Assembly: GCA_035695045.1 (NCBI GenBank)
Contig: DASSEX010000081.1
Coordinates: forward strand, 9,881 to 73,880
From: Mycobacteriales bacterium
GTDB taxonomy: Bacteria > Actinomycetota > Actinomycetes > JAFAQI01
Direction: 5' to 3'
Length of the DNA: 64,000 bases
The notes under the pieces were generated by a model. The model saw nothing but the letters and a program-made list of their open reading frames with translations. It searched no databases and was not told where the DNA came from. Position numbers and translations under genes: made by a program. The stretch's first letter is position 1; each line of letters starts with the position of its first letter. This document shows, in pieces, positions 9,800 through 31,415 of the stretch.

Positions 9800-11365
9800 T
9801 CACACGGGCGCGACCCCGTGGCGCCGGCGCGAGAATGCCCGGTCCTTGTTCCGGTACGCCGCCAGCCGGCGGATGAGCTCTGAGCGCAGCTCTTCGGGCT
9901 CGACGATCGCGTCGACGACGAGCTCACTCGCCAGCCGCACGATGTCGATGTCGGCGTTGTACTCGTCGCGCAGCTTCTGCACGTAGACCGCACGCTCGGT
10001 CTCATCCTCGATCGACTGAATGCGGTTGTAGTGGACGGCATTGACCGCCGCCTCCGCACCCATCACCGCGATCATCGCGGTGGGAAGCGCCAGCGTCGCG
10101 TCCGGCTCGAAGCCCGGCCCGGCCATCGCGTAGAGACCGGCGCCGTAGGCCTTGCGAACGATCACCGAGATCTTCGGCACGGTCGCCTCGGACACCGCGG
10201 TGATCATCTTCGCGCCGTGCCGGATGATGCCCTCCCGCTCGACGGCCGTGCCCACCATGAAGCCCGGAACGTCGGCGAGAAACACCAGGGGGACGTTGAA
10301 CGCGTCGCAGAGCTGGATGAAGCGTGCGGCCTTGTCCGCGGAGTCGACGAACAGGACGCCGCCTTTGAACATCGGGTTGTTGGCGACGATTCCGACAACC
10401 TCGCCGTCGAGACGCGCGAAGCCCACCAGCAGCTCTCGCGCCCACAGCGCATGGATCTCGAAGAACGAGTCTTCGTCGACCAGCGCCTTCACGTAGCGCC
10501 GCATGTCGAATGCCTGCCGCTCGCTGACGGGCACGAGGGAGCGCAGATCGCCGGTGCCGGCCGCCCTCGGCTCGGAGCGCGGGGGGAGCTGGGTCCAGTT
10601 CGAGGGCAGATAGGACAGATAGCACTGCACGATGTCGAGCGCGGTGGGCTCGTCCTTGGCGAGGAAGTGGCCGACGCCTGAGACGGTGCAGTGCATCTTG
10701 GCACCGCCCATCTCCTCCAGCGTCGTCTTCTCCCCGACGACCATCTCCACCATGCGAGCCGATCCGAGGTACATCGAGGCGTTGCCGTCCACCATGACGA
10801 CGACGTCACAGAACGCCGGGATGTAGGCGCCGCCCGCGGCGCTGGGACCGAACAAGGCACACACCTGAGGAATCGAGCCACTGGCCCGAACCTGGGTGTG
10901 GAAGATCTTCCCCGCTCCCCGCCGACCGGGGAACATCTCGACCTGGTCGGTGATGCGCGCGCCTGCGGAGTCGACCAACCACACCATTGGCACACCGGTG
11001 CGGTAAGCCTGCTCGATGATGCGCACGATCTTCTCGACCGTCCGGGCACCCCACGATCCGGCCTTCACCGTCGAGTCGTTGGCCATCAGACACACCGGCC
11101 GACCGTCGACGGTGGCGGTCCCGGTCACGACGCCGTCTGCCGGCAGATCGGCCGCGCCGGCGTTCGCGTAGAGCCCGTCCTCGACGAACGAGCCCGCGTC
11201 GACGAGCAGACGGATCCGCTCTCGCGCGAACAGCTTGCCCTTCTCGGCGTTCGCACTGTGGTACTTCTCGGCGCCGCCCGCGAGGATCCGCTCCCGGAGC
11301 TGGGCGAGATGGGGGTGACCTGGATCGTCGTGCTCGGCCCTGACAGCCTCGGAGTCGGCGCTCAT
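9800..11365 (-). CDS. acyl-CoA carboxylase carboxyltransferase beta subunit (AccD1/MCCase-beta-like)
   Basis: 521 aa from the internal ATG (MSADSEAVRAEH...). Carboxyltransferase N- and C-subdomains are present ([23 protein letters not shown] ... VANNPMFKGGVLFVDSADKAARF). Confidence 0.85.
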   Translation of the reverse strand: MSADSEAVRAEHDDPGHPHLAQLRERILAGGAEKYHSANAEKGKLFARERIRLLVDAGSFVEDGLYANAGAADLPADGVVTGTATVDGRPVCLMANDSTVKAGSWGARTVEKIVRIIEQAYRTGVPMVWLVDSAGARITDQVEMFPGRRGAGKIFHTQVRASGSIPQVCALFGPSAAGGAYIPAFCDVVVMVDGNASMYLGSARMVEMVVGEKTTLEEMGGAKMHCTVSGVGHFLAKDEPTALDIVQCYLSYLPSNWTQLPPRSEPRAAGTGDLRSLVPVSERQAFDMRRYVKALVDEDSFFEIHALWARELLVGFARLDGEVVGIVANNPMFKGGVLFVDSADKAARFIQLCDAFNVPLVFLADVPGFMVGTAVEREGIIRHGAKMITAVSEATVPKISVIVRKAYGAGLYAMAGPGFEPDATLALPTAMIAVMGAEAAVNAVHYNRIQSIEDETERAVYVQKLRDEYNADIDIVRLASELVVDAIVEPEELRSELIRRLAAYRNKDRAFSRRRHGVAPV

Positions 11366-11432
11366 CAAGCGGAAGCGTAGCGGCCCAGGCGTGCCCGACC
11401 GTGCACACCGCTGCGCTAGGGTCGCAGGCCCT

Positions 11433-12608
11433 ATGTCGCAACCAGATCGGCCCATCTTCATCGTCGGCTGCCCGCGATCGGGTACGACGTTGTTCCGGAC
11501 GATGCTGCATGCGCATCCACGCATCGCCGTGCCGCCGGAGACCCGGTTCGTCATGCCGGCGTATCGCCGCCGCTACGCGTTCGGTGACCTCCAGCTGACC
11601 GCGAACCGACAGCGACTCGCCAGGTGGATCGTGGATCGGGCAGAGACCCGGTTCAGCGTTCTCGAGGTCGATGCGGAGAAGGTTCGACAGGCCATCATCG
11701 ACGGGCCGCCGACCTTGGGATCAGCGTTCGGCGCCGTCTTCCGCGAGTACTCCGACAGCCATGGCAAGGCGCGCTGGGGCGACAAGCGCCCGGCCTACTA
11801 CTCGTTCATCGAGGAGCTCGACGCCCTCTTCCCGGACGCGCAGTTCATCCACGTCGTCCGGGACGGGCGGGCATGCGTGGCGTCGCTGAAACGGACACCC
11901 TGGCTCGACCACGAGCCGATTCCGTGCATGGCGACCTGGATGATGGCGATCGACTGCAGCCGCGAGTCCGGCGCGAAGCTCGGCCGGAACCGCTTCTGCG
12001 AGGTCCGTTACGAGGACCTCGTCACAGACCCGGAGAAAGAGATGCGACGGGTCTGCGAGTTCCTCGGCGAAGCCTTCGTCCCCGAGATGTGTCATCCCGA
12101 GAAGATCGCCGAGCAGGTAAACCCTGCGCATTACCAGCAACGCCGTCAGATCAGCGAGGGCATCTACACCAAGTCGATGGAGGCCTGGCGCGACGAGCTG
12201 ACACCGTGGGAGATCGCAACTTTCGAGAAGGCGGCGGGTTCGCGGCTGGCGCTCTACGGCTATGCCCCGTCCGGCATCGACCAGGAACCCCCCAAGGACA
12301 AGGTCCACGAGCTGCTCTCCGAGCACCGCCGCCTCCGCCAGAGCCTGCAGTCCCGGCGTCGTTCGGATCGGCGCAAACGCGTCGATGCCGACCGCCCCGT
12401 TGCCGCCGTACTGACCGAAGGGCAGCGCAAGGCCGCCGCCGAACCGATGAGGCGTCCGTTGGCAAGCAAGCTGCGGCGGTCCGCCCGGCCGGTCGTCCGC
12501 CGAACCCGACGGTTGTGGCGCACAATGGTCCGTCTCGAACGGCCTCCTCGCGCGGCAGCAGCGGCCCCCTCCGCCCAGCAGGCAGTCGACAACATCGAAG
12601 AGACCTGA
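11433..12608 (+). CDS. sulfotransferase family protein (second copy) with basic C-terminal tail
   Basis: About 391 aa from MSQPDRP. Contains the IFIVGCPRSGTTLF 5'-PSB P-loop and a mid-protein VVRDGRA (3'-PB-like) motif. The C-terminus is Arg/Lys-rich. Confidence 0.75.
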   Translation: MSQPDRPIFIVGCPRSGTTLFRTMLHAHPRIAVPPETRFVMPAYRRRYAFGDLQLTANRQRLARWIVDRAETRFSVLEVDAEKVRQAIIDGPPTLGSAFGAVFREYSDSHGKARWGDKRPAYYSFIEELDALFPDAQFIHVVRDGRACVASLKRTPWLDHEPIPCMATWMMAIDCSRESGAKLGRNRFCEVRYEDLVTDPEKEMRRVCEFLGEAFVPEMCHPEKIAEQVNPAHYQQRRQISEGIYTKSMEAWRDELTPWEIATFEKAAGSRLALYGYAPSGIDQEPPKDKVHELLSEHRRLRQSLQSRRRSDRRKRVDADRPVAAVLTEGQRKAAAEPMRRPLASKLRRSARPVVRRTRRLWRTMVRLERPPRAAAAAPSAQQAVDNIEET

Positions 12609-20102: not shown

Positions 20103-21305
20103 ATGCGTCGCTTCCCAGCCGGTCTCGCCGTTGCCGCCCTGATCCTCACGGCCTGCAGTGCGACGAGCGGACAGGCCGAGCGGGTGACGACCGGGGCCTC
20201 CCCGTCCGCCTCGGCAACGGCGACCTCCTCACCGAGCCTCACGCCGCGTCCGACCCGCGCCGCCGCGTCGCTGCGCGGTCTGCTGCCGGGCATGCCGGCG
20301 CCGTTGTCGCCGACGGACATCTATGCCGCGGACCGACCTGGCCGCCTCTCCGCCGTCGTCCGGCACGACCCCGCGCTCGTCTACGTGCCCAACAGCGAGT
20401 CCGGGACGCTCGACGTCATCAGCCAGAAGACGTTCCAGATCGTGGGGCACTACCAGGTCGGCCGGCTGCCGCAGCACGTCACGCCGTCGTACGACATGCG
20501 CCGGCTCTACGTGCTGAACGACCAGGGCAACAGCGTCACGGTCATCGACCCGCGCACCGGCAAGCCGGGCCGGACGATCCCGGTCACCGACCCCTACAAC
20601 ATGTACTTCACCCCCGACGGCAAGTACGCCATCGTCGTCGCGGAGGCGTTGCAGCGTCTCGACTTCCTCAACGCCCGCACGATGCAGCTGGTGCACAGCC
20701 TTCCTGTCGACTGCTTGGGCATCGACCACGCGGACTTCACCGCGGACGGTCGATACGCCGTCTTCTCGTGCGAGTTCTCCGGCAAGCTGCTGAAGCTCGA
20801 CGTCGCGAAGCAGAAGGTCGTCGGCATGATTCACGTCAAGGAAGGCGGCTCGCCGCAGGACGTGAAGACCTCGCCGGACGGCAAGGTGATGTACGTCGCC
20901 GACCAGTACGCCAACGGCGTGCAGATCATCGATCCGAAGCGCTTCAAGGAGATCGGCTTCCTGCACACGGGCGTCGGGGCGCACGGCCTCTACGTCAACC
21001 GCTCGTCGACGTGGCTCTTCGTCACCAACCGGCGCGAGGGCAGCGTGAGCGTGATCGACCTGCGCACGCGCAAGGTGATCCACACGTGGCACATCCCCGG
21101 CGGCGGCAGCCCGGACATGGGCGGTCTGTCGGCCGACGGCAAGGTGCTGTGGTTGTCCGGCCGCTACAACAGCGTCGTCTACGCCCTCGACGCGCGGACA
21201 GGGCGCCTGCTGGCGAAGATTCCCGTCGGGTCCAGCCCGCACGGCCTCTGCGTGTACCCGCAGCCGGGGCGTTACTCGCTCGGGCACACCGGCGTCTTCA
21301 GATAA
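20103..21305 (+). CDS. lipoprotein, YVTN-family beta-propeller repeat protein
   Basis: 400 aa. A signal peptide carries the lipobox ILTAC. A Ser/Thr/Ala/Pro-rich linker is followed by repeated beta-propeller blades. Confidence 0.75.
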   Translation: MRRFPAGLAVAALILTACSATSGQAERVTTGASPSASATATSSPSLTPRPTRAAASLRGLLPGMPAPLSPTDIYAADRPGRLSAVVRHDPALVYVPNSESGTLDVISQKTFQIVGHYQVGRLPQHVTPSYDMRRLYVLNDQGNSVTVIDPRTGKPGRTIPVTDPYNMYFTPDGKYAIVVAEALQRLDFLNARTMQLVHSLPVDCLGIDHADFTADGRYAVFSCEFSGKLLKLDVAKQKVVGMIHVKEGGSPQDVKTSPDGKVMYVADQYANGVQIIDPKRFKEIGFLHTGVGAHGLYVNRSSTWLFVTNRREGSVSVIDLRTRKVIHTWHIPGGGSPDMGGLSADGKVLWLSGRYNSVVYALDARTGRLLAKIPVGSSPHGLCVYPQPGRYSLGHTGVFR

Positions 21306-22158
21306 CAGGAGGCCGGCCGGCTCGGGTCATCCGCCAGGCCGCTCTCCAGCCGATCGGACGGCGTTCGCCGCAGGGCTGACGGAGGCCGTCCCGCCACCCG
21401 CGCAGCGCCTCCCGGCGCGCGGCGCCCTGCGGCACGCGGGCGAGCGTCAGCACGAACCAGACCGCGAGGTAGACGGCGGCGACCGGCGCGGGCAGGTTGC
21501 GGCGGGCGAGCCACACCCGGTTGCGCCCCTGCATCCGGAAGTACGCCGGGTCACGCCCCGGCTGCTTCGCATCGTGCCAGCACACCAGCGCACCGGCGTA
21601 ACGCACCCGATGCCCTCCGTCGATGACGCGCCACGCGAGCTCGACGCCTTCGTGCTGGTAGAAGTACACCTCCGGCCAGCCACCGGCCGCCGCGAGCACG
21701 TCGCGCCGCGCGACGACCGCTCCCTCCCACAGCGCCGCGAGGTCACTGTCCCGGCCCGCGTCGCCGACGCGCAGCCGCGGTACGAAGGAGCGCGGCGTCT
21801 CCCCCGTCACCGGGTCGACCGGACGCAGCTGCACCACTCCGATGTCCGGGTTCGCGTCCAAGAGCTCCGCGGCCCTCGCGAGCACGTCGTCGTCGGCCAG
21901 GGCAGCGTCGTCATCGAGGAAGAACAACAGCTCGCCACTGACATGTGGCACACCCGCGTTGCGGCCGGCCGGGATGCCGACGTTCTGGGGAAGCCCGACA
22001 CCGCGCACGTCCGGAGGCAGGCCACTGGGCTGCCAACCGTTGCCGACGACGACGACGTCGAGAGAGACGCCACGTTGGGACAGGATCGAGCGCAGCGCCC
22101 GCTCCAACAGCTCCGGTCGGTTGCCCATGGTGAGGACGACGCAACCGATGCCGGTCAT
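21298..22158 (-). CDS. glycosyltransferase family 2 (short, GT-A)
   Basis: 287 aa from the internal ATG (MTGIGCVVLTMGNRPELL...), with an FLDDDA DXD motif. Its 3' end overlaps the convergent lipoprotein gene by 8 nt. The ORF-track extension to 22704 is discounted. Confidence 0.75.
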   Translation of the reverse strand: MTGIGCVVLTMGNRPELLERALRSILSQRGVSLDVVVVGNGWQPSGLPPDVRGVGLPQNVGIPAGRNAGVPHVSGELLFFLDDDAALADDDVLARAAELLDANPDIGVVQLRPVDPVTGETPRSFVPRLRVGDAGRDSDLAALWEGAVVARRDVLAAAGGWPEVYFYQHEGVELAWRVIDGGHRVRYAGALVCWHDAKQPGRDPAYFRMQGRNRVWLARRNLPAPVAAVYLAVWFVLTLARVPQGAARREALRGWRDGLRQPCGERRPIGWRAAWRMTRAGRPPVI

Positions 22159-22946
22159 CGCAGTCGCGCTGACGTCAGGATCGTCAGCAGATGCAGCAGG
22201 CAGACGAGGACGCCGACGACGGCGAGGACGACGGCAAGCACCTGATGACCGACGGTCGAACCCGCGACCAGGTCGACGACGGCGACCGCCACGAGGACCA
22301 CCGACAGGTCCCAGGCGAGCAAGAGACGGTTGATCGGGACGGCGTACGCGAGACGGCGTAGCCGGCGGATCCCGGAGACCTGCGGCGCGACAGCCGTCGG
22401 CTCGAAACGAGGCAGCCCGACATAGGCACGCGCCACGTGCACGAGGTCGGTCTCCGCCCTGCTGACCAGGACGAGCACGGCGCCGAGCAGCCCGAGTGTC
22501 GTCCAGCCGCCGATCGACCCGAGGCCACCGTCGGCATGCACCCCGACCGCGCACACGACGGCTGCGTCGGTCGTGTAGTGGCCGAAGCGGTCGAGGTAGA
22601 TCCCGCGCGGACTGCTCCACTGACGCCAGCGCGCGAGTTCTCCGTCCGAACAGTCGCAGAGCAGCTGCAGCTGGATGAGTGCGACCGCGACGAAGTCGGA
22701 CCACGCCGACGGCACGGTGAGCACCAGCGCCGCGGCCAGCCCGCTGACCACCATCAGCCAGGTGAGGCCGTCCGGCGTTGCCCTGGTGGGGATCAGCGCC
22801 CGGGTGAAGTGCAGCGACACCCGGCGCATGTAGAGCCGGCCCATCCAGTGCTCGCGACTCACGTCCTCGACGAGCGCCGGCGGATGAACGATCGCGCGCA
22901 GCTCCTCGAGCGAGGGCCGCGTGCGCTCAGCCGAAGGCGGCGACAT
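22155..22946 (-). CDS. CDP-alcohol phosphatidyltransferase family protein
   Basis: 263 aa polytopic membrane protein carrying the CDP-OH_P_transf motif DCSDGELARWRQWSSPRGIYLDRFGHYTTDA (D-x2-DG-x2-AR...G-x3-D-x3-D). Confidence 0.8.
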   Translation of the reverse strand: MSPPSAERTRPSLEELRAIVHPPALVEDVSREHWMGRLYMRRVSLHFTRALIPTRATPDGLTWLMVVSGLAAALVLTVPSAWSDFVAVALIQLQLLCDCSDGELARWRQWSSPRGIYLDRFGHYTTDAAVVCAVGVHADGGLGSIGGWTTLGLLGAVLVLVSRAETDLVHVARAYVGLPRFEPTAVAPQVSGIRRLRRLAYAVPINRLLLAWDLSVVLVAVAVVDLVAGSTVGHQVLAVVLAVVGVLVCLLHLLTILTSARLR

Positions 22947-23964
22947 AGTCGTCGACCCGCTTGCGGACGTCCGCCTCCGGCAGGTCGAGGTGCTCGAGGA
23001 TCGTGAACCGTTCGGGCCGCGTCGTCGGGGCGTGCACCACAGCGGCGGTGAACTGCTCGCTGGTGAGCGTGATGTCTCCCGGCAGCCTCGGCAGCTGGTG
23101 CCGCCGCAGGCACTCGTCGATCAGCTGCTGCTGCCTCTGGTCGCCGCGTAGGAACGCACAGAAGAGCGCGCCGACACCGGCGAGCTCGCCGTGGTTGCTC
23201 ACGCCCGGGAAGAGCTGGTCGATGGCATGGAGGATCTCGTGGTCGCCGCCGCTGCAGGGCCGGCTGCTGCCGGCGACCGCCATTGCCAGGCCGGACAGGA
23301 TCAGCGCCTCGGCGAGGGTCACCAGGAAGTCGGCCGACTCGATCGAGTCGGGCCTGAAGACGACGGCGTCCGCTGCCGCGCGCGCCATGGCCGCGGCGAG
23401 CCCGTCGATCTGCTCGCCGCGCTCGTCGGCCGCGAGCTGCCAGTCGGACAGAGCGGACAGGTTGCTGACCACGTCGCCGATGCCGGACCGCACCATCCGC
23501 TCGGGCGCGCGCTGCACGTAGTCGAGGTCGACGAACACGGCGAGCGGGATGTGCACGCCGTACGAGCCCTTCCGTCCTTCGTGCTCCAGCGACGCGACCG
23601 GTGACGCGATGCCGTCGTGCGACAGGTTGGTCGCGACCGCGACCATCGGCAGGCCGGTCAGGCTCGCGGTGTACTTCGCGACGTCGAGCGTCCGCCCGCC
23701 GCCGATGCCGACGACGGCGTCGTACGACGACTGACGCAGGCGCACCGCGAGCTCACGGGCGGAGTCGACGGATGCTTCCTCCACCGGCAGGACATCGGCG
23801 TCGGTGAGGGTCGGCGCGAGCACCTCCGCGATGGCCTCGCCCTGGCCGGGACCGACGAGGACGGCGACCCTCCCCCCGGCGGAGATGCCACCCTCGGCGA
23901 GCAGCCGGCGAAGTCCCGTGATCGCGCCGCGCCGCACGTCGACCGTGAGCGGCGACGCGATCAT
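22927..23964 (-). CDS. iron-containing alcohol dehydrogenase superfamily; sn-glycerol-1-phosphate dehydrogenase (AraM/EgsA)-like or glycerol dehydrogenase-like
   Basis: 346 aa from the internal ATG (MIASPLTVDV...). Contains the GIGGGRTLDVAKYTA glycine-rich NAD(P) loop and a DHE/HxxxH metal-site region. Its size and motifs fit G1PDH better than 3-dehydroquinate synthase. Confidence 0.6.
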   Translation of the reverse strand: MIASPLTVDVRRGAITGLRRLLAEGGISAGGRVAVLVGPGQGEAIAEVLAPTLTDADVLPVEEASVDSARELAVRLRQSSYDAVVGIGGGRTLDVAKYTASLTGLPMVAVATNLSHDGIASPVASLEHEGRKGSYGVHIPLAVFVDLDYVQRAPERMVRSGIGDVVSNLSALSDWQLAADERGEQIDGLAAAMARAAADAVVFRPDSIESADFLVTLAEALILSGLAMAVAGSSRPCSGGDHEILHAIDQLFPGVSNHGELAGVGALFCAFLRGDQRQQQLIDECLRRHQLPRLPGDITLTSEQFTAAVVHAPTTRPERFTILEHLDLPEADVRKRVDDYVAAFG

Positions 23965-23969
23965 CCGGG

Positions 23970-24701
23970 CTAGTAGTGGCACGCGATCTCCCGCGCCTTC
24001 GCGAGGTCGTCGTGGTTGTCGACCTCGACCCACGCGACCGTCCCGATCGGCGCGACATCGACCAGGCCGCCGCGGTCGGCGTACTCCTGGTAGCCGTCCT
24101 CGTAGTAGAGGCCGGTGTCCCGGCGCCAGGTCGCCTCGAGCGCCTCCGCGAGCCCGTCGGCTGCGGCAGGGGCGATCCGGGTCACGCCGATGTACTCCCC
24201 CGCAACCTCCGCCGGGTCGAGCTCTTTGTTGATGCGGGTCATCGTCCCGGCCGGACCGAGGATGATCTTCATCTCCTCCTCGGCGAGCGGCTTCACGTCG
24301 TCCATCGCGAGGAGGATCTCCCGTGGCTCCGTGGCGAGCAGAGTCTTCTCCACGGAATCGGGATGCACGGTGTCGCCGTTGCACAACAGCACACCCTCGG
24401 CGAAGAACTCACGCGCCAGCCACAGCGAGTAGGCGTTGTTCCACACCGTCGCCCTGTCGTTGAAGACGGTCCGCAGCCGGACACCGTGCCGTCGCTGCAG
24501 CGCCTCGACGCGGTTGTCGATCTGGTGCGCCGCGAAGCCGGTGACCACGACCACATCGGTCAGGCCCACCTGCGCGAGGTTGTGCAACGCGATGTCGAGG
24601 ATCGACGTGTCGTCGGCGACCGACAGGAGCGTCTTCGGAAGGTCGTCCGTCAACGGGGAGAGCCGGCGACCCGCGCCCGCGGCGAGAACGACTCCGATCA
24701 T
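23970..24701 (-). CDS. sugar/polyol-phosphate nucleotidyltransferase (GlmU/RmlA-like N-terminal fold; LicC/IPCT-like cytidylyltransferase)
   Basis: 243 aa. Contains the MIGVVLAAGAGRRLSPLTDDLPKTLL GxGxR(L) nucleotide loop. This is not the small TagD (HxGH) class. Confidence 0.75.
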   Translation of the reverse strand: MIGVVLAAGAGRRLSPLTDDLPKTLLSVADDTSILDIALHNLAQVGLTDVVVVTGFAAHQIDNRVEALQRRHGVRLRTVFNDRATVWNNAYSLWLAREFFAEGVLLCNGDTVHPDSVEKTLLATEPREILLAMDDVKPLAEEEMKIILGPAGTMTRINKELDPAEVAGEYIGVTRIAPAAADGLAEALEATWRRDTGLYYEDGYQEYADRGGLVDVAPIGTVAWVEVDNHDDLAKAREIACHY

Positions 24702-27682
24702 GCGCCAACCTCATCACACGCGGCCCTCAGACCTGCGCACCGCTCGACGAGGAAGTCGGCGACGGCGGCCGCTGCGCGTCCTTGGTCGTACTCCGCGAAC
24801 CGCACCCGAGCAGCGGCCCGCAACGATGCGCTGTCGTGCCGCGTTCGCTCGAGATCGGCGAGCAAGGCCGCCAGCGCCTCGTCGTCGTGCACGACCGGGC
24901 CGGGGGCGGCCTCGGCGATGTCGACGTACGCCGGCGGCGCCGTTCCGTGCACCGTGCGCCCGATCTCGCAGCGGCAGCCGACGAGGATGACCGGCCGGTC
25001 GCGGAGCACGATGTCGAACATCGCCGGGTGATGGTCGGTGACGAGGACGTCGGCGGCAAGCAGCAACTGCTCGAGCGGCCCGTCGCCGAGACGGAGAACG
25101 CGCGCGCCTCCGAACGCGACCGCGGAGCCGACCTCGGCCGGCCGGTCGCAGTCCCGCAGGTGAAGCACGGCGAGGTCCTCGGGGCGCACCCCGACCGCCG
25201 CCCGGGCGGCGTGGACCGACGCCGCGTCGTCGTGGACCAGAGCGTCGTTACGCGGGAGTCCTACCGGCAACGTCTGCGCCGTGTGCCGGAACGCGCGCGC
25301 CAGCACGTCCTCGTCGTACGGCGCCCGCACGCACACCGCGTCCCACCGATCGACACTGCGGCGCAGCGCAAGCCGGTCGTCGTTGCTCGCCCGGCGCATC
25401 TGCGGGGCGTCGAAGCCGACCCACCGCAACGGGGTGAACCTCGGGATGTGCACGTACACGGTGCTCGGCGACTTCACCGTCTCGCGCGGGAATCCGCTGT
25501 CGTCGACCCATGCCTCCGCTCGAGCGAGAGCAGAGTAGTAGGCCCAGGAGCCATGCCTGACGAGGCGCACGTCCGTGGGGAACACGGTGGTGTCGCCGGC
25601 GTGCACCCAGATCGGCTCGATGGGCAAACGCCTTCGGCGGAGCTCGTCGAAGACGGCACGCGGGCTTCCGCCGAACGCTGCACCGTCCTCGCTCTGGAAC
25701 ACCACCGACCGCGGCCGGGTGCGGGCCGGCCGAAGGGCGCGAGCCAACACCTCCTCACGCACCCGCGGGTGCGCGGGGTGCCGGGCCAACGTCGCCGCCC
25801 GCCGGGCGGTCTGCCGGGCGCGTCGCAGACCGGGCGACCGGAGAACCCGCTGACCCGCCTTGTGTACCGCCTGTGCACTGCGTGTGCCCGGAACCCACTC
25901 GAGAGCGAGGTCCCCCTGGGGCGTGACGAGGGTCTGGAGGCGGTCGGCAGCGAACCGGCCGGCGAGGGGTCGACCGGACAGATGCAGCCCGTCCCAGTCG
26001 GCATTCCGGACGGTCAACCGGGACTCGTTCACCTCGCTGCCGACGGACAGCTGCAGCCGCAGGTCCCAGACCCGATCGACGAAGCCGAGCGCCCTGATGG
26101 TCTGTCTGGTGTCGACGGTTGCAGTCCACTCGATGTCGCCGGTGTCCGGTTCACGTCGCAGGTCGAGGACCGGCACAGAGCCCGAGCGACGGCCGCGCCG
26201 GGGGCGGGCGATGAGGCGGGCGGCGACAGGAGCCTCCGACGGGATCCGGCCGAGCTGGTTGAGCAGTCGCCCACGCAGCTCTAGCCGATGACCGTGCACC
26301 TGCAGCTGCGTCACCTCGTCATAGAGGTCGAGGGAGGGCAGGGCCAGCTCCTGGAACCCGAGCTCTGTGACGTCGAAGAACGGCGCATCCGCGGCGGCTT
26401 CCAGTCCACGTTCGTCCCAGAACACCCGACCGGACCGCTCCAGGAGCCTCGTCGAGAGCTTGCGTCCGTGCGCCACGTAGTCGATGGCGCCGAACAGGCC
26501 GGCCTCGTCGTCATGCAGGAGGTACCACCCGACGAGTGCCTGGAGAGGATGGACGCGGGCGAACGCGGCGGCATCCAGCGTTTCCAGATAGCTCCTTGCG
26601 ACTCGGCCGAACTCCTCGCGGAACGCCGAGTCTCGGAACGGCAGATCCGGCAGGTAGAGCACGAGGTCGTGACGCAAGAACTTCAGGTCCTTGTGGAGCT
26701 TCAGCTGCGTTGCACCATGCGCCCGGAACTGCTCATCGAGCAGGCGATGCACGCGGACGCGGTCCTCGAAGTTGCGCAGCTCGGATCTCCGGTTGGAGAT
26801 CGAGGGGGTGTCGAGCGACTCGACCACGTTCCATCGGTAGACGACGTCCGGCACCAAGGTGAACCGGCGTGCGAGGAGGTAGACCTCCCCCGAGAAGAGC
26901 AGGTCTTCGTAGTGGACGCCTTCCGGGAAGCGCAGCGCATTGCGTTGGAGGAAGTCACGTCGGTAGCACTTGTTGGTGGACAAGGTGTCGTACAGCAGGT
27001 CGGGGTTCTCGAGGATCGACTCGTACGTCGTCCGTCTCGTGTAGAGCCACCGGTACCACGGCGACACTGCGCCGCCCTTGCTCAGGTGGACCCTGTGGCA
27101 GAGCCCAGACGAGAAGTCCGCCTCGTCTGCCTCCGCGGCGGCGACGAGAGTCGCGCAGGCAGTTCGGGGAAGCTCGTCGTCACTGTCCAGGAACATGACG
27201 TAGCGTCCGCGAGCGATGTCGATCCCGGCGTTGCGGGGACGGCTGCAGCCACCGCTGTTCTCGGCGAGCCGCTCGACCCGAATGCGGGGGTCGGCCGCGG
27301 CCAGCTTCGCAGTTACGGTCGGCGTGGCGTCAGTGCTGGCGTCGTCGATGATCACGATCTCGAGGTCGGTCATCGTCTGGCGGCGGACCGACCGGACGGC
27401 CGTGTCGAGACGGTCCGCGTCGTTGTAGACGATCACGACCACGCTCAGGAGCGGCTCGGTCGCCCTCGAGGAACGGGACGATCGGACACGGACAGGAAGA
27501 ATTCGGGCGCTCCTTAGGTTCTTCGGGTGACAGTCTCGTTGCTCCGTTGGGACTGAAGCAGGCCCCTGCCCCCGCCGAAGGAAAAGATATGCGACTCCGA
27601 CTTGTGGCCGCCGCGATCGCCGTGGCGCTTCCGACCATGGGCCTCGTGGCCACCACTGCTCCCTCTGCCGGCGCGGCGACAT
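24698..27682 (-). CDS. bifunctional GT2 / TagF-like glycerophosphotransferase fusion, second paralog (TagF-like active-site motif degenerate)
   Basis: 994 aa as the ATG-initiated ORF. The GT2 region starts near residue 78 (LLSVVVIVYNDADRL...[11 protein letters not shown]...FLDSDD), so the true start may be an internal GTG near 27440. The C-terminal TagF-like region keeps VTDHHPAMFDI but reads YVHIPRFTPLRWVGFD where paralog 1 has the WHG motif. Confidence 0.75.
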   Translation of the reverse strand: MSPRRQREQWWPRGPWSEAPRRSRRPQVGVAYLFLRRGQGPASVPTEQRDCHPKNLRSARILPVRVRSSRSSRATEPLLSVVVIVYNDADRLDTAVRSVRRQTMTDLEIVIIDDASTDATPTVTAKLAAADPRIRVERLAENSGGCSRPRNAGIDIARGRYVMFLDSDDELPRTACATLVAAAEADEADFSSGLCHRVHLSKGGAVSPWYRWLYTRRTTYESILENPDLLYDTLSTNKCYRRDFLQRNALRFPEGVHYEDLLFSGEVYLLARRFTLVPDVVYRWNVVESLDTPSISNRRSELRNFEDRVRVHRLLDEQFRAHGATQLKLHKDLKFLRHDLVLYLPDLPFRDSAFREEFGRVARSYLETLDAAAFARVHPLQALVGWYLLHDDEAGLFGAIDYVAHGRKLSTRLLERSGRVFWDERGLEAAADAPFFDVTELGFQELALPSLDLYDEVTQLQVHGHRLELRGRLLNQLGRIPSEAPVAARLIARPRRGRRSGSVPVLDLRREPDTGDIEWTATVDTRQTIRALGFVDRVWDLRLQLSVGSEVNESRLTVRNADWDGLHLSGRPLAGRFAADRLQTLVTPQGDLALEWVPGTRSAQAVHKAGQRVLRSPGLRRARQTARRAATLARHPAHPRVREEVLARALRPARTRPRSVVFQSEDGAAFGGSPRAVFDELRRRRLPIEPIWVHAGDTTVFPTDVRLVRHGSWAYYSALARAEAWVDDSGFPRETVKSPSTVYVHIPRFTPLRWVGFDAPQMRRASNDDRLALRRSVDRWDAVCVRAPYDEDVLARAFRHTAQTLPVGLPRNDALVHDDAASVHAARAAVGVRPEDLAVLHLRDCDRPAEVGSAVAFGGARVLRLGDGPLEQLLLAADVLVTDHHPAMFDIVLRDRPVILVGCRCEIGRTVHGTAPPAYVDIAEAAPGPVVHDDEALAALLADLERTRHDSASLRAAARVRFAEYDQGRAAAAVADFLVERCAGLRAACDEVGA

Positions 27683-28578
27683 CGCCCGTGCTCTTCGGTC
27701 TGACAGACAAGTGGAAGGACCAGATCAGCGCCGACAACTCGCAACTGCATCTGACCGCCGGCGTGGTCGACCTGTTCCAGCAGTGGGTCGCCACCAGCAC
27801 GAAGCGCACGACGGTGAAGAACTGGATGAGCTGGGTCCGGGGCGCCAGCGGCGCGCCCGGTGGCGCTCCCATGCTGACCCTTCAGCCACCCACGTCCGCC
27901 TCTTTGAGCTCGATCAATGCCGGGCACTACGACGCGCAACTGCGCGCGTGGGCGCACACGATTGCGTCCTGGGGCCACCCGATGTTCGTGCGGCTGTTCC
28001 CGGAGATGAATCAGAAGTCGCACAGCTACTCGCCCGGCTACGGAAGCAACACCGCCGCACAGTTCCGGACGGCGTGGCGTCACGTGGTCACACTGATGCG
28101 CAACGCCGGCGCTCACAACATTGCCTTCATCTGGTGCCCGTACCGCGTCTACTCGACCTCGACGCCACTGAAGTCGGTGTGGCCCGGTGCTTCGTATGTC
28201 AACTGGGTCGGATTCGACGCCTACAACTACGACGACTCACACCATGCCTTCGCGTGGCCGTACGCACTGTTCTCGCCCACCGTCAAGGCGATCCGCAGCA
28301 TCGCCCCGTACAAGCCGCTCGTCATCGCCGAAGTTGGCACAAGGCCCGAGAGCCAGAAGCCGACCTGGATCTCCCGCTCCGTAACGGCCGCCCAGTCGGT
28401 CGGCGCGAAGGCCATGCTCTGGTTTGACGAGAGCGCGGAGTACAACTGGCGGCTCGATTCGGCGCCAAGTCCCTCGGTGATCAACGCAGCCAGGACAGCA
28501 CTGCACTCGTCCGCGATCACCTACGCCGGCAAGTGGTCGATCGCCCGGATCGACCAGCTCGTCTCGACGGGCAAGTAG
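27589..28578 (+). CDS. secreted glycoside hydrolase, GH26-like (beta-mannanase/endoglycanase fold)
   Basis: About 329 aa from MRLRL, with signal peptide MRLRLVAAAIAVALPTMGLVATTAPSAGAA. Candidate catalytic motifs are FVRLFPEMN (acid/base Glu) and VIAEVG (nucleophile Glu). Upstream RBS is GAAGGAAAAG. Confidence 0.6.
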   Translation: MRLRLVAAAIAVALPTMGLVATTAPSAGAATSPVLFGLTDKWKDQISADNSQLHLTAGVVDLFQQWVATSTKRTTVKNWMSWVRGASGAPGGAPMLTLQPPTSASLSSINAGHYDAQLRAWAHTIASWGHPMFVRLFPEMNQKSHSYSPGYGSNTAAQFRTAWRHVVTLMRNAGAHNIAFIWCPYRVYSTSTPLKSVWPGASYVNWVGFDAYNYDDSHHAFAWPYALFSPTVKAIRSIAPYKPLVIAEVGTRPESQKPTWISRSVTAAQSVGAKAMLWFDESAEYNWRLDSAPSPSVINAARTALHSSAITYAGKWSIARIDQLVSTGK

Positions 28579-28583
28579 GCGGA

Positions 28584-31415
28584 CTAACCGTTCGGCTGGG
28601 AGGCGGCGATCGTCGCGAGCGCCGCCTCCAGCAGCCGCTCCTGCCGCTCGTACTCCGCCCGGTTGTTCGCGGCCAGCGCAGCCTGGGCGCGCGCCTGGGC
28701 CTGCTGAGCGGCGGCGACAGCCTGGGCCAGTCGGGCGGACGGCGTCGACCCGTTGCCGACGGCGTCGGCCAGGGCGAGGTCGAGTGTCGGCTCGAACGCG
28801 ATCGTGCCACCGCGCGCCACGACGACGCGACGCAGGATCGGGAAGGACGTGCCGCCCGCGGCGCGGGAGTAGATCGGTTCGACCCAGATGACGTCACCGT
28901 CGACCGGGATCGGCTGCAGGTTGCCCAGGACGACTCGGGAGCCGCCGCCTCGCAACAGTGTCAGCTGCTGGGCCACGCCGGGATCCGACTCGATGTCGTT
29001 GCGGATCTGGCCCGGTCCCTCGACGCCCGCCGGAAGGGTCTGCAGCTGCATCCGGCCGTAGCCAGGCCCCGGATCCGAGCCGACCGAGAGGTAGGCCGTC
29101 ATGGTGCGTCCGTTCAGAGAAACGAACGACGTCGTGAGTGCCAGCTGCGTGCCGCCGGCGCCGGGAAGGCGTAGGTAGTAGGACGGCTGCGCGGCCGACC
29201 CCTTCATCGTCGGGTCGGACGGCACCAGCCAGAAGTCACTGCCGTTGTAGAACGAGCGCGGGTCGGTGACGTGGTAGCGCGCAAGCATCGTGCGCTGCAC
29301 GTTGAACAGGTCGCGCGGGTAGCGCAGATGCGCACGTACGTCGGAGGGGAGGGCAGCCGCCGGCCGGACCAGTCCCGGGAACGCCTTCATCCACGTCGCA
29401 AGAACGGGGTCGCGCCCGAGGCCGGTCTCGGTGTCCCACCGGTAGAGGTGCACGGTGCCGTCGTACGCGTCGACCGTCGCCTTCACCGAGTTGCGGATGT
29501 AGTTGATGCTCTGGTTCGACTGCGCCGACGACGAGCCGTTCGTGACATAGGTGTCCGACGCCGCCGCGGCAAGGTTCTGCTGCTGCGAGTAGGGCACCGA
29601 GTTGGCCGTGGTGTAACCGTCGACCACCCACAGCACCCGCCCGCCGGCTACGACGGGGTACGCCGCCCCGTCGACGGTGAGCCAGGGGGCGACCTGCTGC
29701 ACGCGCTGCCGCGGGTCGCGGATAGAGAGCAGGCGCGAATACTTGTTGATGCCCTTGGAGAACAGGATGTTCTTGTCGCCGAGCTGCCAGGCGAAGGCGA
29801 GGCGTCGCCAGAACGAGCCGATCCGGACACCGCCGAGTCCGTGGTAGGTGTTGGTGACCTGGCCGCTTCCGGTGGCCGGCCGGTCGAACTCGTGCGGCCG
29901 CGCACCGGGCGGAGCGCCGACGATGGAGTACGACGGCGAGCTCTGCCCGAAGTAGATGCGCGGTTCGTAGCTGCCGAGGCCTCCCGTGGGGGGGATGTCC
30001 GACTCCACGAAGTTGGGTGTTCCGCCGCGGAGATCATCGACAGGCGCAGCGACAACGCCGTAGCCATGCGTGTAGACGAGGTGCAGGTTGCTCCAGGTGC
30101 GCTGACCACTGGGCAGTCCGGACGGGTTCAGCTCACGCACAGCCAGCGCGACGTCACGCGTGGCACCACCCAGCGGGTAGCGGTCCGTGTCCAGTGTCGA
30201 CTTGAACCCGTAGAAGGCACGGACCTGCTGCAGCTGGGTGAACGTCGGCGACATCTGGTTGGGGTCGAGCAGCTGCGGCTGTGCCGCGGCCACCGCCGCC
30301 GACACCGCCGCTCCGGACATCTGCTGCGGAGACGCGGCCGCGCCCGTGGTGACGGTGTCCGACCCGATGCCGTAGCCGTATCTGGTCGCCACCAGGTCGC
30401 GGGCGATGGACAGCGCTTCGGCGTCCTGGGCGTCCGGCTTGACGTGATAGGTCTGCACGACCCAGGGCACGACCCCACCGAGCACCACGCCGCTGAGCGC
30501 CAGCGTCACGACCCCCGCGGCCGTCACCTTCCAGCTGCGGAAGGCGGCGTTGATGAAGAACAGCACCGCGAGGATGACGGCGATGACCAGCAGGATCAGC
30601 TTCGAAGGCAGCACGGCATGGATGTCGGTGTACGACGGGCCGGTGACGACGCCGCGGTTGGAGACCGCTGTCGCCAGGCGGTCGAGCCAGTAGCCGAACG
30701 CCTTCAGCAGTGCGAGAGCGCCGAGCAGCAGGCACAGGTGGACGCGCATCTCGGCGCGCAGCCGCGGCCGTTGACCACGTGGTCGAAAGCCGCCGTTGAG
30801 GTAACCCATCACCCCCAGGAGCACCAGGCACAGCAGCACGATGGTGAACACCGCACCGAGCGCGAAGCGATGCATCGGGTAGACGAACACGTAGTAGGAG
30901 TAGTCGCGGTGGAACTGCGGGTCCTTGACTCCGAACGACGTCGCGTTGCGCCATTGCAGCCACAGCGGCCACTGCCGGGCTGCCCGGGACCCCAGCCATA
31001 TGCCGGCGACCAGGGCTGCGACGACCGTCACCAGGTGCCGGCGCGGGTAGACCAGCCGCCCGTAGCGAAGGCGCACCGAGAACCGCGTCGTCGGGGCGTC
31101 GCCGCCGTACGGTGTGTGCCGGTGCAGCGCGAAGAGGTTCACCGCGACGGCCAACGCGGTCGCCCCGCCGAAGACGGCGAACATCACGATCTGCGTCAGC
31201 AGCCGCCGTGAGTAGACCGACGACTCGTGCAACGAGCCGAACCACAGCCAGTTGGTGTAGAGCGAAACCACCGTGTTGACGACGGCGTACAGGACCGCGA
31301 CGACGACGACGAGCACGAAGAGCGGGCGGACCTTGCGCAACGTCGCCCGGATCGGGGCCTTGGGCCGGACCGGCGCCTCCACCTCACGGCTCTCGGATGG
31401 TGCGGCGGTCCTCAC
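28584..31415 (-). CDS. UPF0182 family large membrane protein
   Basis: 943 aa. The N-terminal TM bundle carries the family hallmark YTNWLWFGSLHESSVYSRRLLTQIVMF, followed by a large Gly/Tyr/Trp-rich extracytoplasmic domain. From memory it matches the mycobacterial Rv3193c-type UPF0182 proteins. Confidence 0.7.
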   Translation of the reverse strand: MRTAAPSESREVEAPVRPKAPIRATLRKVRPLFVLVVVVAVLYAVVNTVVSLYTNWLWFGSLHESSVYSRRLLTQIVMFAVFGGATALAVAVNLFALHRHTPYGGDAPTTRFSVRLRYGRLVYPRRHLVTVVAALVAGIWLGSRAARQWPLWLQWRNATSFGVKDPQFHRDYSYYVFVYPMHRFALGAVFTIVLLCLVLLGVMGYLNGGFRPRGQRPRLRAEMRVHLCLLLGALALLKAFGYWLDRLATAVSNRGVVTGPSYTDIHAVLPSKLILLVIAVILAVLFFINAAFRSWKVTAAGVVTLALSGVVLGGVVPWVVQTYHVKPDAQDAEALSIARDLVATRYGYGIGSDTVTTGAAASPQQMSGAAVSAAVAAAQPQLLDPNQMSPTFTQLQQVRAFYGFKSTLDTDRYPLGGATRDVALAVRELNPSGLPSGQRTWSNLHLVYTHGYGVVAAPVDDLRGGTPNFVESDIPPTGGLGSYEPRIYFGQSSPSYSIVGAPPGARPHEFDRPATGSGQVTNTYHGLGGVRIGSFWRRLAFAWQLGDKNILFSKGINKYSRLLSIRDPRQRVQQVAPWLTVDGAAYPVVAGGRVLWVVDGYTTANSVPYSQQQNLAAAASDTYVTNGSSSAQSNQSINYIRNSVKATVDAYDGTVHLYRWDTETGLGRDPVLATWMKAFPGLVRPAAALPSDVRAHLRYPRDLFNVQRTMLARYHVTDPRSFYNGSDFWLVPSDPTMKGSAAQPSYYLRLPGAGGTQLALTTSFVSLNGRTMTAYLSVGSDPGPGYGRMQLQTLPAGVEGPGQIRNDIESDPGVAQQLTLLRGGGSRVVLGNLQPIPVDGDVIWVEPIYSRAAGGTSFPILRRVVVARGGTIAFEPTLDLALADAVGNGSTPSARLAQAVAAAQQAQARAQAALAANNRAEYERQERLLEAALATIAASQPNG

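Follow-up and report, generated by a model that had tools for sequence, protein, structure and literature searches.

A conserved TagF-like domain without the canonical catalytic residues in a GT2 fusion protein from an uncultured soil actinobacterium

TagF-family enzymes make wall teichoic acids and teichoic-acid-like capsules, and to our knowledge the same two histidines are needed by every characterised member. Staphylococcus epidermidis TagF (3L7I-3L7M) joins an N-terminal GT2-like region to a C-terminal GT-B domain, and its deposited mutants locate both residues: 3l7j reads TWNG against wild-type TWHG, identifying the histidine of the Trp-His-Gly (WHG) motif as H444 (TarL H300), and 3l7m reads RMAYL against wild-type RMHYL, fixing the position of the second, H584 (TarL H433). 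H444 acts as the base and H584 as the leaving-group histidine. Two invariant histidines are critical in TagB, TagF and TarL, and the stacking of the Trp-His pair, a proline that opens the cytidine pocket and a helix dipole at the pyrophosphate have been described (PMC10901376); the same residue roles are reported for capsule polymerases (PMC5974469). The GT-B Gro3P 'transition transferase' Cps7A (Actinobacillus pleuropneumoniae) has a fold related to that of TagF but not the WHG histidine (PMC11666461). Tyr takes the place of H444 in this enzyme, which is nevertheless active, so loss of the canonical histidine is not proof of inactivity. A further point of reference is given by S. aureus TarS and TarP (5TZE, 6H1J), which add GlcNAc to wall teichoic acid and whose C-termini are trimerisation or carbohydrate-binding-like domains.

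The window analysed here, a stretch of 64,000 nucleotides from a Mycobacteriales bacterium, a soil actinobacterium, encodes two GT2/TagF-like fusion proteins, paralog 1 (P1) and paralog 2 (P2), which have the two-part layout of TagF and match its chain in both regions (Table 1). They align with each other end to end by BLASTP at 37% identity (E 1e-141). All TagF catalytic and donor motifs that P2 has lost are kept in P1, TDYSS included; P1 scores 342 bits against PF04464 over profile positions 5-365 and matches TagF across the whole domain (7.9e-77). P2 is 914 aa long by the NCBI call (P0001), with an uncertain start in an open frame that reaches 27682, and has a 100% protein match in a 'Mycobacteriales bacterium' MAG. 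Its Pfam scores are 111 bits for PF00535 and 147.4 bits for PF04464 (cut-off 22.1), the latter above the family threshold but split in two pieces, the better of which covers profile positions 10-196 of 367. The HMMER match of P2 to TagF likewise comprises two blocks only. At one related locus (L002), 8 kb separate the P2-like gene from a P1-like gene upstream of it that has the histidine.

Table 1. Positions in the window of the two fusion genes, their motifs and their neighbours
Feature	Position	Strand	Remarks
Paralog 1 (P1)	5307..8132	+	Canonical GT2 + TagF fusion, 941 aa
YLQTWHGSPYKAMGFD	7317..7364	+	P1; WHG at 7329..7337
P1 YAPTFR	7611..7628	+	
P1 RAH (R-x-H)	7722..7730	+	
GT4 gene	8120..9328		Downstream of P1
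Second GT2, 286 aa	21298..22158	-	Last gene of the P2 operon; 4-base overlap with previous gene; Pfam
CDP-alcohol phosphotransferase-like membrane protein, 263 aa	22155..22946	-	PF01066, 26.6 bits
Glycerol-1-phosphate dehydrogenase-like (Fe-ADH_2/DHQS-like)	22927..23982	-	PF13685, 115 bits
Nucleotidyltransferase (NTP_transferase fold)	23970..24701	-	Pfam, NCBIfam; syntenic in L001, L004, L005
Paralog 2 (P2)	24698..27442	-	GT2 + degenerate TagF-like fusion; ORF list, Pfam
TagF-like GT-B domain of P2	24701..25726	-	Residues 573-914; fold retained, catalytic and donor residues lost
Cys823-x-Cys825 (CRC)	24968..24976	-	Clade-invariant; canonical Tyr-Asp-x position
His804-His805	25028..25033	-	Replace Tyr-Ser of TDYSS
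Shortened segment LHLRDCDRPAEVGSAVAFGGARVLRLGDGP	25076..25165	-	P2 residues 760-789; alignments, model secondary structure
Cys765	25148..25150	-	Clade-invariant; Phe/Trp position of YAPT(F/W)R
Flagged motif YVHIPRFTPLRWVGFD	25409..25456	-	P2, at the place of YLQTWHGSPYKAMGFD in P1
Pro-Arg-Phe	25436..25444	-	Replaces Trp-His-Gly
GT2 (GT-A) catalytic domain of P2	26753..27442	-	Residues 1-230, apparently intact; Pfam
DXD motif DSDD	27176..27187	-	P2 GT2 domain; D86 S87 D88 D89 clade-invariant
GH26-like protein	27547..28578	+	Divergent, upstream of P2; PF02156, 28 bits

A sequence-only reading had proposed that Trp-His-Gly is replaced by Pro-Arg-Phe in P2 and had placed the change at 25420-25460, a span that overlaps the exact motif; translation and alignment register bear the replacement out. 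The two motifs stand in ungapped register in the BLASTP alignment of P1 with P2, and HMMER alignments of both proteins to S. epidermidis TagF agree, setting Pro-Arg-Phe at W443-H444-G445 while the polyol loop retains its Thr-Pro-Leu. A frameshift or assembly artefact at this point was ruled out, as independent metagenome assemblies likewise have no Trp-His there, and the P2 codons ATC CCG AGG TTC align to ACG CCA CCC GGT in the nearest ortholog. Across the P2 clade, an alignment of 16 sequences, the first WHG position holds P, F or G, the second R, P, D or A (H in a single sequence) and the third G or F, with Phe in place of Gly found in the window protein alone. Since the H444-equivalent varies in this way, it is not a functional residue in the clade. 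The same reading allowed that an indel might simply have moved the catalytic histidine; the clade alignment reveals no such residue in the TagF-like domain, where the only histidines conserved in at least 15 of the 16 sequences, H804 and H805, belong to the other subdomain. The P2 histidine two residues before the motif (YVH) is Gln in most orthologs.

Loss of canonical residues extends through the rest of the domain. Of 100 residues scored as invariant over 41 canonical proteins, 43 remain in P2, and those lost in the clade include W675, H676, K681, Y769-R774, R806, H808, Y846-S848 and D866 (P1 numbering). The segment LHLRDCDRPAEVGSAVAFGGARVLRLGDGP stands where canonical proteins have YAPTFR, a helix, a strand and R-x-H, with about 35 residues (one beta-alpha unit) gone; the spacing from beta1 to alpha3 is 27 residues in P2 against 62 in the P1 model, and the C-terminal subdomain has four modelled strands against five. 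The second catalytic histidine is thus absent from P2: the R-x-H stretch is missing, or cannot be aligned, both in P2 and in 15 of the 16 clade members, and none of the 16 has a histidine there. Donor motifs are altered as well, P2 reading LHLRDCDR for YAPT(W/F)R and TDHHP for TDYSS. The cytidine-pocket proline, the phosphate loops YAPTxR and R-x-H and the Tyr-Ser-Ser of the pyrophosphate helix are all lost. Still present are the acidic residue of MFD/LFE and PRxD, RG.Y and PGP, the last three shared with TagF together with FES..G. The same changes are carried by at least 15 metagenomic orthologs. Where the earlier reading took a downstream TD[YH]xxxMFD motif to be retained, P2 in fact has TDHHPAMFD against TDYSSVMFD, without the Tyr-Ser-Ser. 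That reading also overlooked the deletion of about 35 residues, which takes both YAPTFR and the second catalytic histidine.

One possible explanation for these losses is decay: P2 would be a duplicated polymerase in the course of shedding its C-terminal half, a remnant under relaxed selection kept through its fusion to a useful GT2. Besides the missing catalytic residues and the deleted segment, such a history would fit the Gly-to-Phe change specific to the window's lineage and the assorted degenerate motifs of other GT2-TagF-like lineages. It would also fit dN/dS within the window's own sub-clade, at 0.31-0.53 for the TagF-like part against 0.16-0.23 for GT2 with dS near saturation, so that constraint on the TagF-like part may be weaker in this lineage. 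However, no frameshift or stop occurs in at least 15 orthologs, 50-67% identical to P2, and the domain is never truncated although its stop was free to move. In two closer pairs from the sister sub-clade, dN/dS is 0.13 for the N-terminal TagF-like part, 0.12 for the C-terminal part and 0.13 for GT2 (L008 against L009), and 0.15, 0.10 and 0.13, respectively (L010 against L002). In the sister sub-clade, purifying selection on the degenerate domain is as strong as on the GT2 half. The AlphaFold2 model of the TagF-like domain is very confident (pLDDT 92.2, pTM 0.88), and a Foldseek search with it returned TagF chains for all of the top 12 matches (E 1e-25, TM 0.76-0.80; 0.78-0.80 for the best), followed by Cps3D and TarL. 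With 43 family-invariant residues kept and new clade-invariant ones added, we regard decay as highly improbable. The TagF-like half is predicted to be folded and is under selection, and is therefore most likely a non-catalytic module and not part of a decaying gene. The features by which a pseudoenzyme is recognised (catalytic residues gone, fold kept, purifying selection) all appear in this domain, as judged from sequence and model.

The new clade-invariant residues are concentrated in what was the CDP-glycerol pocket. Compared with TagF, P2 is without W443-H444, the YAPTWR loop, H584 and Tyr-Ser-Ser, and has Cys and His on those loops instead. C765, H804, C823 and C825 are each invariant in 15-16 sequences (H804 in 16 of 16, its neighbour H805 in 15 of 16), and in the AlphaFold model each falls 1-4 residues past a strand: Cys765 directly after beta1 of the C-terminal subdomain (239-243), His804-His805 after 280-283 and Cys823-x-Cys825 after 299-302. 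By the topology of the Rossmann fold these three strands are neighbours, which would bring the residues close together. On sequence and model, the cluster may be a metal site, most simply of the structural zinc type. A regulatory function could be imagined as well, in which a redox or metal-sensing switch, or an iron-sulfur site, controls GT2 or polymer synthesis; the invariant Cys-x-Cys, Cys and His-His on adjacent loops of a former ligand pocket would suit it, as would two extra conserved Cys in the C-terminal tail of sub-clade A (ERC...C.EV). Neither a redox partner nor a gene for Fe-S assembly occurs in the operon, however, and we give such a switch only a very slight chance. It is quite doubtful that the shortened C-terminal subdomain of the clade is still functional as a metal-dependent site of a new type, with Cys765, His804/805 and Cys823-x-Cys825 as its parts, that transfers from or senses a CDP-alcohol supplied by the adjacent nucleotidyltransferase and dehydrogenase-like genes; if it were, an actinobacterial wall polymer with sn-glycerol-1-phosphate would be assembled by a mechanistically different descendant of TagF.

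P2 is the first gene of a conserved operon, whose content bears on what its TagF-like half might do. The nucleotidyltransferase start and the P2 stop share 4 bases (ATGA). The dehydrogenase-like protein that follows, with a gene start inferred from a 13-base overlap in orthologs, scores 246 bits against NF002022 (NAD(P)-dependent G1P dehydrogenase), under the cut-off of 413. In four of eight loci translational coupling ties both genes to P2; in the other four they are not adjacent to it. Downstream of P2 orthologs the CDP-alcohol phosphotransferase-like gene is always present; its product carries the signature DCSDGELAR-x8-G-x3-D-x3-H, with His in place of the fourth Asp in an eight-locus alignment. 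The second GT2 is syntenic in all ortholog loci long enough to show it, and the GH26-like gene lies upstream of P2 in all loci reaching that far.

In a rival reading, the TagF-like domain would remain a phosphotransferase, its active site rebuilt so that His804/His805 serve as the leaving-group histidine in place of the deleted H584 and the acceptor is activated by a different residue or by a bound metal. As donor it would use a CDP-alcohol from the adjacent genes, possibly CDP-sn-1-glycerol. The Thr-Pro-Leu loop, the MFD/LFE acid, PRxD, RG.Y and PGP are all retained, and the helix pointing at the pyrophosphate in TarL and TagF has, in P2, the His-His pair at its N-terminal end. Coupling of the nucleotidyltransferase and dehydrogenase-like genes to P2 would provide such a donor in half of the loci, and no TagD-type cytidylyltransferase was found within the window. 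In Cps7A, an active enzyme, Tyr occupies the H444 position and a His-His pair near the pyrophosphate site superimposes on H584, whereas the pair in P2 replaces the Tyr-Ser of TDYSS; moreover, Cps7A is a separate single-domain protein, and its comparison with P2 is one of fold and residue positions. The TagF-like polymerase Cps7D is stimulated even by inactive mutants of Cps7A, whose presence and not activity is what counts (PMC11666461), so that Cps7A offers a precedent for a non-catalytic helper role as much as for a rebuilt site. Against catalysis in P2, the H444-equivalent is free to be R, P, D, A or H within the clade, the cytidine-pocket Pro and the arginines of YAPTxR and R-x-H are lost, the nucleotide-binding subdomain is short of a beta-alpha unit, and three invariant Cys look more like a structural metal site than a pyrophosphate site. 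The donor genes lie away from P2 in four of eight loci while the CDP-alcohol phosphotransferase-like gene always adjoins it, and a CDP-alcohol would more obviously be used by that membrane protein. A rebuilt site is possible but, on balance, unlikely.

The N-terminal half presents a simpler picture. The earlier reading's description of an intact DXD was confirmed: DSDD is accompanied by HYEDL, the Glu-Asp catalytic-base motif, which is clade-invariant, and mean identity of the GT2 domain within the clade is 75%. The nearest solved relatives are TarS (5tze, 5e-20) and TarP (6h1j, 6e-17), with which DDxSTD, NSGG..PRN, DSDD and YED of P2 are aligned. The GT2 domain is probably active, and by analogy with TarS and TarP its role could be the decoration of a polyol phosphate, although P2 has a TagF-like GT-B module where those enzymes have their own C-terminal domains.

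We therefore favour, with moderate confidence, the view that P2 is a wall-glycopolymer glycosyltransferase in which a probably active GT2 is joined to a conserved non-catalytic, pseudoenzyme-type TagF-like module. In such a protein the Cys765/His804(-His805)/Cys823-x-Cys825 cluster on three strand-end loops would fill the former CDP-glycerol pocket, and the module would keep a role free of catalysis: holding P2 at the membrane, binding an anionic polyol-phosphate chain, or pairing with either the canonical polymerase P1 or the downstream membrane enzyme. We infer this binding or pairing role from context, and under any of its forms the GT2 domain would add sugar to the polymer. Phosphotransfer in the operon would fall to the co-translated CDP-alcohol phosphotransferase-like membrane protein, supplied with donor by the nucleotidyltransferase and the glycerol-1-phosphate dehydrogenase-like enzyme. 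The earlier suggestion that P2 is catalytically altered, dead or uses a different donor was sound in that the canonical machinery is gone but understated how much has changed; among those three alternatives, the sequence evidence favours a non-catalytic module.

P2 is not alone among actinobacterial fusions. P0128, P0143, P0200, P0209, P0214 and P0240 are same-family fusions with WHG, APTxR and/or R-x-H substituted, and degenerate loci (L011-L014) come from Actinomadura, Spirillospora and Streptomyces. Because these other fusions are also degenerate, loss of the TagF-type catalytic residues is recurrent in the family. Unlike P2, they have neither the deletion nor the Cys/His/Cys-x-Cys residues, each showing its own pattern, and the GT2 DXD that P2 keeps is lost in L011 (FLAAGE) and L012 (FVEAGR). 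P2 and its relatives are automatically labelled 'CDP-glycerol glycerophosphotransferase', a label that is probably wrong for the conserved P2 clade, as well as for several further actinobacterial lineages whose motifs are degenerate. The case refines the reading of such fusion proteins and overturns nothing known. P2 would be a naturally occurring case of a module that derives from a polymerase and is retained non-catalytically beside an active glycosyltransferase, in a conserved operon through which an uncultured soil Mycobacteriales could make a glycerol-1-phosphate-containing wall polymer.

P1 and P2, the canonical paralog and the paralog with a degenerate TagF-like half, share an architecture in which a GT2 domain precedes a PF04464 TagF-like domain, and they align end to end at 37% identity. 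The window has an actinobacterial base composition (70% G+C), and a metagenome-assembled genome labelled 'Mycobacteriales bacterium' encodes a protein that matches P2 at 100% identity. The sequence-only reading had reported that the Trp-His-Gly triplet of P1 is Pro-Arg-Phe in P2; this difference is correct, and both peptides were located in the window (see table of coordinates). The Phe in place of the Gly is found only in the P2 of the window among members of its clade, which comprises P2 and 15 metagenomic orthologs. A frameshift or assembly artefact behind the IPRF motif or the deletion described below was considered and rejected, as codon-level comparison revealed plain substitutions and the deletion is common to independent assemblies. 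The start of P2 is uncertain: the GTG called by NCBI lies within the opening beta-strand of GT2, further upstream stands an AAGGAG sequence with an in-frame ATT 7 bases on, and orthologs start approximately 6-17 residues ahead of the VVVIVYND strand.

Two point-mutant structures of S. epidermidis TagF, 3l7j (TWNG, against TWHG in the wild type and P1) and 3l7m (RMAYL, against RMHYL in the wild type and RAHYL in P1), mark the two histidines named H444 and H584 in the literature. Two papers describe both as invariant and critical in TagB, TagF, TarL and TagF-like capsule polymerases, with H444, which stacks on the preceding Trp, proposed as the base activating the acceptor hydroxyl and H584 proposed to protonate the leaving CMP (PMC10901376; PMC5974469). 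When P2 is aligned to TagF with HMMER, the match stops after TagF residue 517 and picks up again at 609, with 53 residues of P2 against 92. In a 23-sequence alignment, P2 reads LHLRDCDR for the canonical LYAPTFRD, TDHHPAMFD for TDYSSVMFD and VGCRCE for FYAYDL, and lacks about 35 residues that include the strand and loop bearing R-x-H. Of the TagF-like columns with at least 97% invariance across 41 canonical GT2-TagF proteins, 100 in all, 43 are retained by 14 or more of the 16 clade members. The lost columns cover every residue with a catalytic or donor-binding role assigned from TarL and TagF structures: the Trp-His pair, the Pro of APT (by which, according to PMC10901376, the cytidine pocket is opened), the YAPTxR Arg, both the Arg and the His of R-x-H, and, at the N-terminus of the helix that points its dipole at the pyrophosphate, the Tyr-Ser-Ser. 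The kept columns are mostly Gly, Pro, Trp and hydrophobic positions, together with PRxD, RG.Y, PGP, Thr-Pro-Leu in the polyol loop and the acid in MFD.

A catalytic His shifted by an indel and conserved elsewhere was also sought. Within the TagF-like domain only H804 and H805 are kept in at least 15 of 16 members, and both lie in the other subdomain; the His of YVH is mostly replaced by Gln in the orthologs, H630 is conserved in just 11 of 16, and the idea of a shifted His was rejected. The earlier suggestion of a catalytically altered or dead partner stands in part, with a loss far wider than the one motif on which it was built. The alignments show that P2 has neither histidine and none of the donor loops left, so that it would be unable to use the TagF mechanism. 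P2 lacks three things that define a PF04464-type enzyme, namely the first catalytic His, the second catalytic His and the donor motifs; it is a TagF homolog by sequence and fold, and the annotation 'CDP-glycerol glycerophosphotransferase' should not be applied to it.

AlphaFold2 models were built for the C-terminal halves of P1 and P2. Confidence in the P2 model is very high (pLDDT 92.2, pTM 0.88), and among solved structures the twelve TagF chains listed match it best (TM 0.76-0.80), with Cps3D and TarL next. Over the first part of its C-terminal Rossmann subdomain the P1 model shows five strands, with 62 residues between strand 1 and helix 3, whereas the same stretch of P2 has four strands and 27 residues. 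The strand count and spacing indicate that one beta-alpha unit is missing, the one carrying the second His.

A protein search placed P2 in a tight clade whose 15 other cluster representatives come from soil metagenomes; their identity to P2 is 50-67%, and all measure 904-940 aa except for one 790-aa fragment. The next nearest relatives are canonical 950-aa proteins of Streptomyces and its relatives at approximately 40-42% identity. The clade accounts for one 50%-identity cluster and two fragments among 1.84 billion library representatives. Cultured or GTDB-representative carriers were sought in two genome scans, which yielded no clade member, only degenerate relatives of 34-39% identity in Actinomadura, Spirillospora and Streptomyces. 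The clade is thus a narrow lineage, found in metagenomes only so far. The deletion and the loss of YAPTxR and R-x-H are common to its members, as is the loss of Trp-His, with the exception of P0009, a clade member that keeps the first catalytic His (QAGHGTP; alignment A1, columns 720-900) and has a longer segment replacing most of the deletion. P0009 already has the Cys, His-His and Cys-x-Cys and is without YAPTxR and R-x-H; from its sequence it looks like an intermediate state.

Plain decay of the TagF-like half is a very unlikely explanation, contradicted by selection data. Nei-Gojobori dN/dS values for the TagF-like N-subdomain, TagF-like C-subdomain and GT2 domain were 0.13, 0.12 and 0.13 between ortholog loci L008 and L009, and 0.15, 0.10 and 0.13 between L010 and L002. 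Between the window and L001 they were 0.31, 0.52 and 0.20, values that are rough because synonymous sites in the window's sub-clade are near saturation; constraint may be somewhat relaxed there. These ratios and the intact frames argue against a decaying pseudogene and, with the confident model, show a TagF-like domain that is folded and under selection.

Canonical proteins lack four residues that never vary within the clade: Cys765 (at the Phe/Trp position of YAPT(F/W)R), His804 (in place of the Tyr of TDYSS, with His805 beside it in 15 of 16), and Cys823 and Cys825 (in place of the Tyr and third residue of Y-D-x). Cys765, His804 and the Cys823/Cys825 pair fall 1-4 residues past model strands 239-243, 280-283 and 299-302, respectively. 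By GT-B Rossmann topology these would be strands 1, 4 and 5, lying side by side, with C-terminal ends that are predicted to form the nucleotide pocket. We infer that the three Cys, with one or two His, make a putative zinc-type structural site replacing the donor where the lost pocket opened, their closeness being argued from fold topology. A redox or metal switch at these same Cys/His residues is a very unlikely alternative. The window's sub-clade (P2, P0002, P0003, P0004) also has an extra C-terminal tail, ERC(A/P)G(L/W)R..C(D/G)EV, with two conserved Cys, which is missing from the other sub-clade.

The GT2 domain is the best conserved part of P2 (75% mean identity within the clade). Among solved proteins it is closest to TarS and TarP, which transfer GlcNAc to teichoic acid in S. 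aureus and with which the motifs DDxSTD, NSGG..PRN, DSDD and Glu-Asp align. From this conservation and motif alignment, the domain is expected to be active.

P2 heads a minus-strand operon of five genes with overlapping stops and starts; a scan of it for promoters and terminators gave nothing above chance. Seven ortholog loci were compared (L001, L002, L004, L005, L008, L009, L010). All five genes are also present in L001, L004 and L005, while in the other four the membrane protein directly follows P2, and the second GT2 comes next in all three that are long enough. This synteny identifies the CDP-alcohol phosphotransferase-like membrane protein and the second GT2 as the invariant partners of P2. 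The membrane protein carries DCSDGELAR-x8/9-G-x3-D-x3-H, compared with the family motif D-x2-DG-x2-AR-x8-G-x3-D-x3-D; the fourth Asp is His in all eight copies and is kept in a 471-aa relative in L007, a Frankiaceae locus. A GH26-like gene (weak Pfam match, 28 bits), the product of which may trim or remodel a polymer, lies divergently upstream of P2 in the window, and a GH26 gene does so in every locus reaching that far. TagG/TagH-like ABC transporter genes are near the operon in the window and adjoin the GH26 gene in five loci. Between the two, the window and L005 have a UPF0182 membrane protein (806 bits in the window) that is absent from L001, L002, L008 and L010.

Coordinates of the features discussed, in the window unless another locus is named
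Feature	Position	Strand	Remark
P1	5307..8132	+	941 aa
P1 counterpart peptide YLQTWHGSPYKAMGFD	7317..7364	+	
P2, operon gene 1	24698..27442	-	914 aa per NCBI call (GTG at 27442); open frame up to 27682
Flagged P2 peptide YVHIPRFTPLRWVGFD	25409..25456	-	
P2 C-terminal tail	24701..24760	-	
AAGGAG upstream of P2	27515..27510	-	in-frame ATT at 27502
Nucleotidyltransferase, gene 2	23970..24701	-	
Glycerol-1-phosphate dehydrogenase-like, gene 3	22927..23982	-	with gene 2, 22927..24701
Membrane protein, gene 4	22155..22946	-	263 aa; CDP-alcohol phosphotransferase signature
Second GT2, gene 5	21298..22158	-	
GH26-like gene	27547..28578	+	
UPF0182 membrane protein	28584..31415	-	
Sulfotransferase	11319..12608	+	
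Sulfotransferase, L002	5885..6961		
Sulfotransferase, L010	12..1238		
Sulfotransferase, L007	4282..5409		
Membrane protein, L001	14521..15312		
Membrane protein, L002	12763..13533		
Membrane protein, L004	7259..8050		
Membrane protein, L005	13321..14112		
Membrane protein, L008	6043..6813		
Membrane protein, L009	3785..4570		
Membrane protein, L010	6899..7669		
Degenerate relative, L011	7314..9038		
Degenerate relative, L012	7128..9020		
Degenerate relative, L013	6759..9086		
Degenerate relative, L014	6552..8963		

In L002, a canonical P1-like gene (WHG, YAPTFR, R-x-H, TDYSS) lies 8 kb upstream of the P2-like gene, and a GT4, another GT2 and a sulfotransferase belong to the same contiguous cluster; the window counterparts are scattered between 5.3 and 33 kb and interleaved with acyl-CoA carboxylase genes. 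The Frankiaceae genome carries the P1-GT4 pair and an LCP ligase as well as the ABC transporter and a nucleotidyltransferase, G1P dehydrogenase and CDP-alcohol phosphotransferase module, but lacks P2. A Streptomyces synteny study likewise groups araM, a CDP-alcohol phosphatidyltransferase, a GT2 and tagGH (PMC13118837). The operon, its synteny and the P1-like neighbours assign P2 to a wall-glycopolymer pathway of teichoic-acid-like type in which a canonical polymerase is present as well. Since a sulfotransferase gene recurs by the TagG/TagH-like transporter in the window, L002, L010 and L007, the polymer may be sulfated. The G1P dehydrogenase-like gene (NF002022, 246 bits, under the cut-off of 413) and the NTP_transferase-fold nucleotidyltransferase gene, with no TagD-type cytidylyltransferase found within the window, hint at a CDP-sn-1-glycerol (or other CDP-alcohol) route. 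This actinobacterial occurrence contrasts with the published view that bacterial G1P dehydrogenase is restricted to Bacillales (PMC8262930).

We consider it somewhat probable that the TagF-like module of P2 is noncatalytic, that its GT2 domain adds sugar, and that phosphotransfer falls to the CDP-alcohol phosphotransferase-like protein of the operon. The module would then serve by anchoring the enzyme to the membrane, binding the anionic chain, or pairing with P1 or with the membrane enzyme encoded downstream. Cps7A sets a precedent for a helper of this kind, as its inactive mutants still stimulate the TagF-like polymerase Cps7D to long chains (PMC11666461). The same protein also lends weight to the alternative of a rebuilt active site in P2, as Cps7A actively transfers glycerol phosphate with a Tyr where TagF has H444 and His-His where it has H584 (PMC11666461); in P2, a His-His stands close to the pyrophosphate site, Thr-Pro-Leu of the polyol loop and the acid that binds ribose are kept, and donor-synthesis genes are coupled to P2 in half of the loci. 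However, clade members differ freely at the H444 position, residues of the cytidine pocket have been lost and the nucleotide-binding subdomain lacks a part, so that we regard a rebuilt site as unlikely, although a serious alternative.

Loss of TagF catalytic residues is not unique to the P2 clade. The first-position His is missing in 30 of approximately 250 TagF-like domain instances in the proteins fetched here, 19 of the 30 belonging to the clade. Other actinobacterial GT2-TagF-like proteins are independently degenerate (P0128, P0143, P0196, P0200, P0208, P0209, P0214, P0240), and degenerate relatives were located at four loci of Actinomadura, Spirillospora and Streptomyces (L011-L014), two of which have also lost the GT2 DXD (FLAAGE in L011, FVEAGR in L012). 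Patterns in other lineages include TWYG, loss of APTxR and loss of R-x-H, and several multi-domain proteins of 1100-1650 aa have one TagF-like domain in which the first His alone is missing. The P2 clade is set apart from the other degenerate lineages by its deletion, its Cys/His signature and its fixed operon. A literature search for TagF-like pseudoenzymes found no paper. The value of the P2 case lies in the correction of an annotation, in a putative metal site that is testable, and in the conserved operon that surrounds P2.
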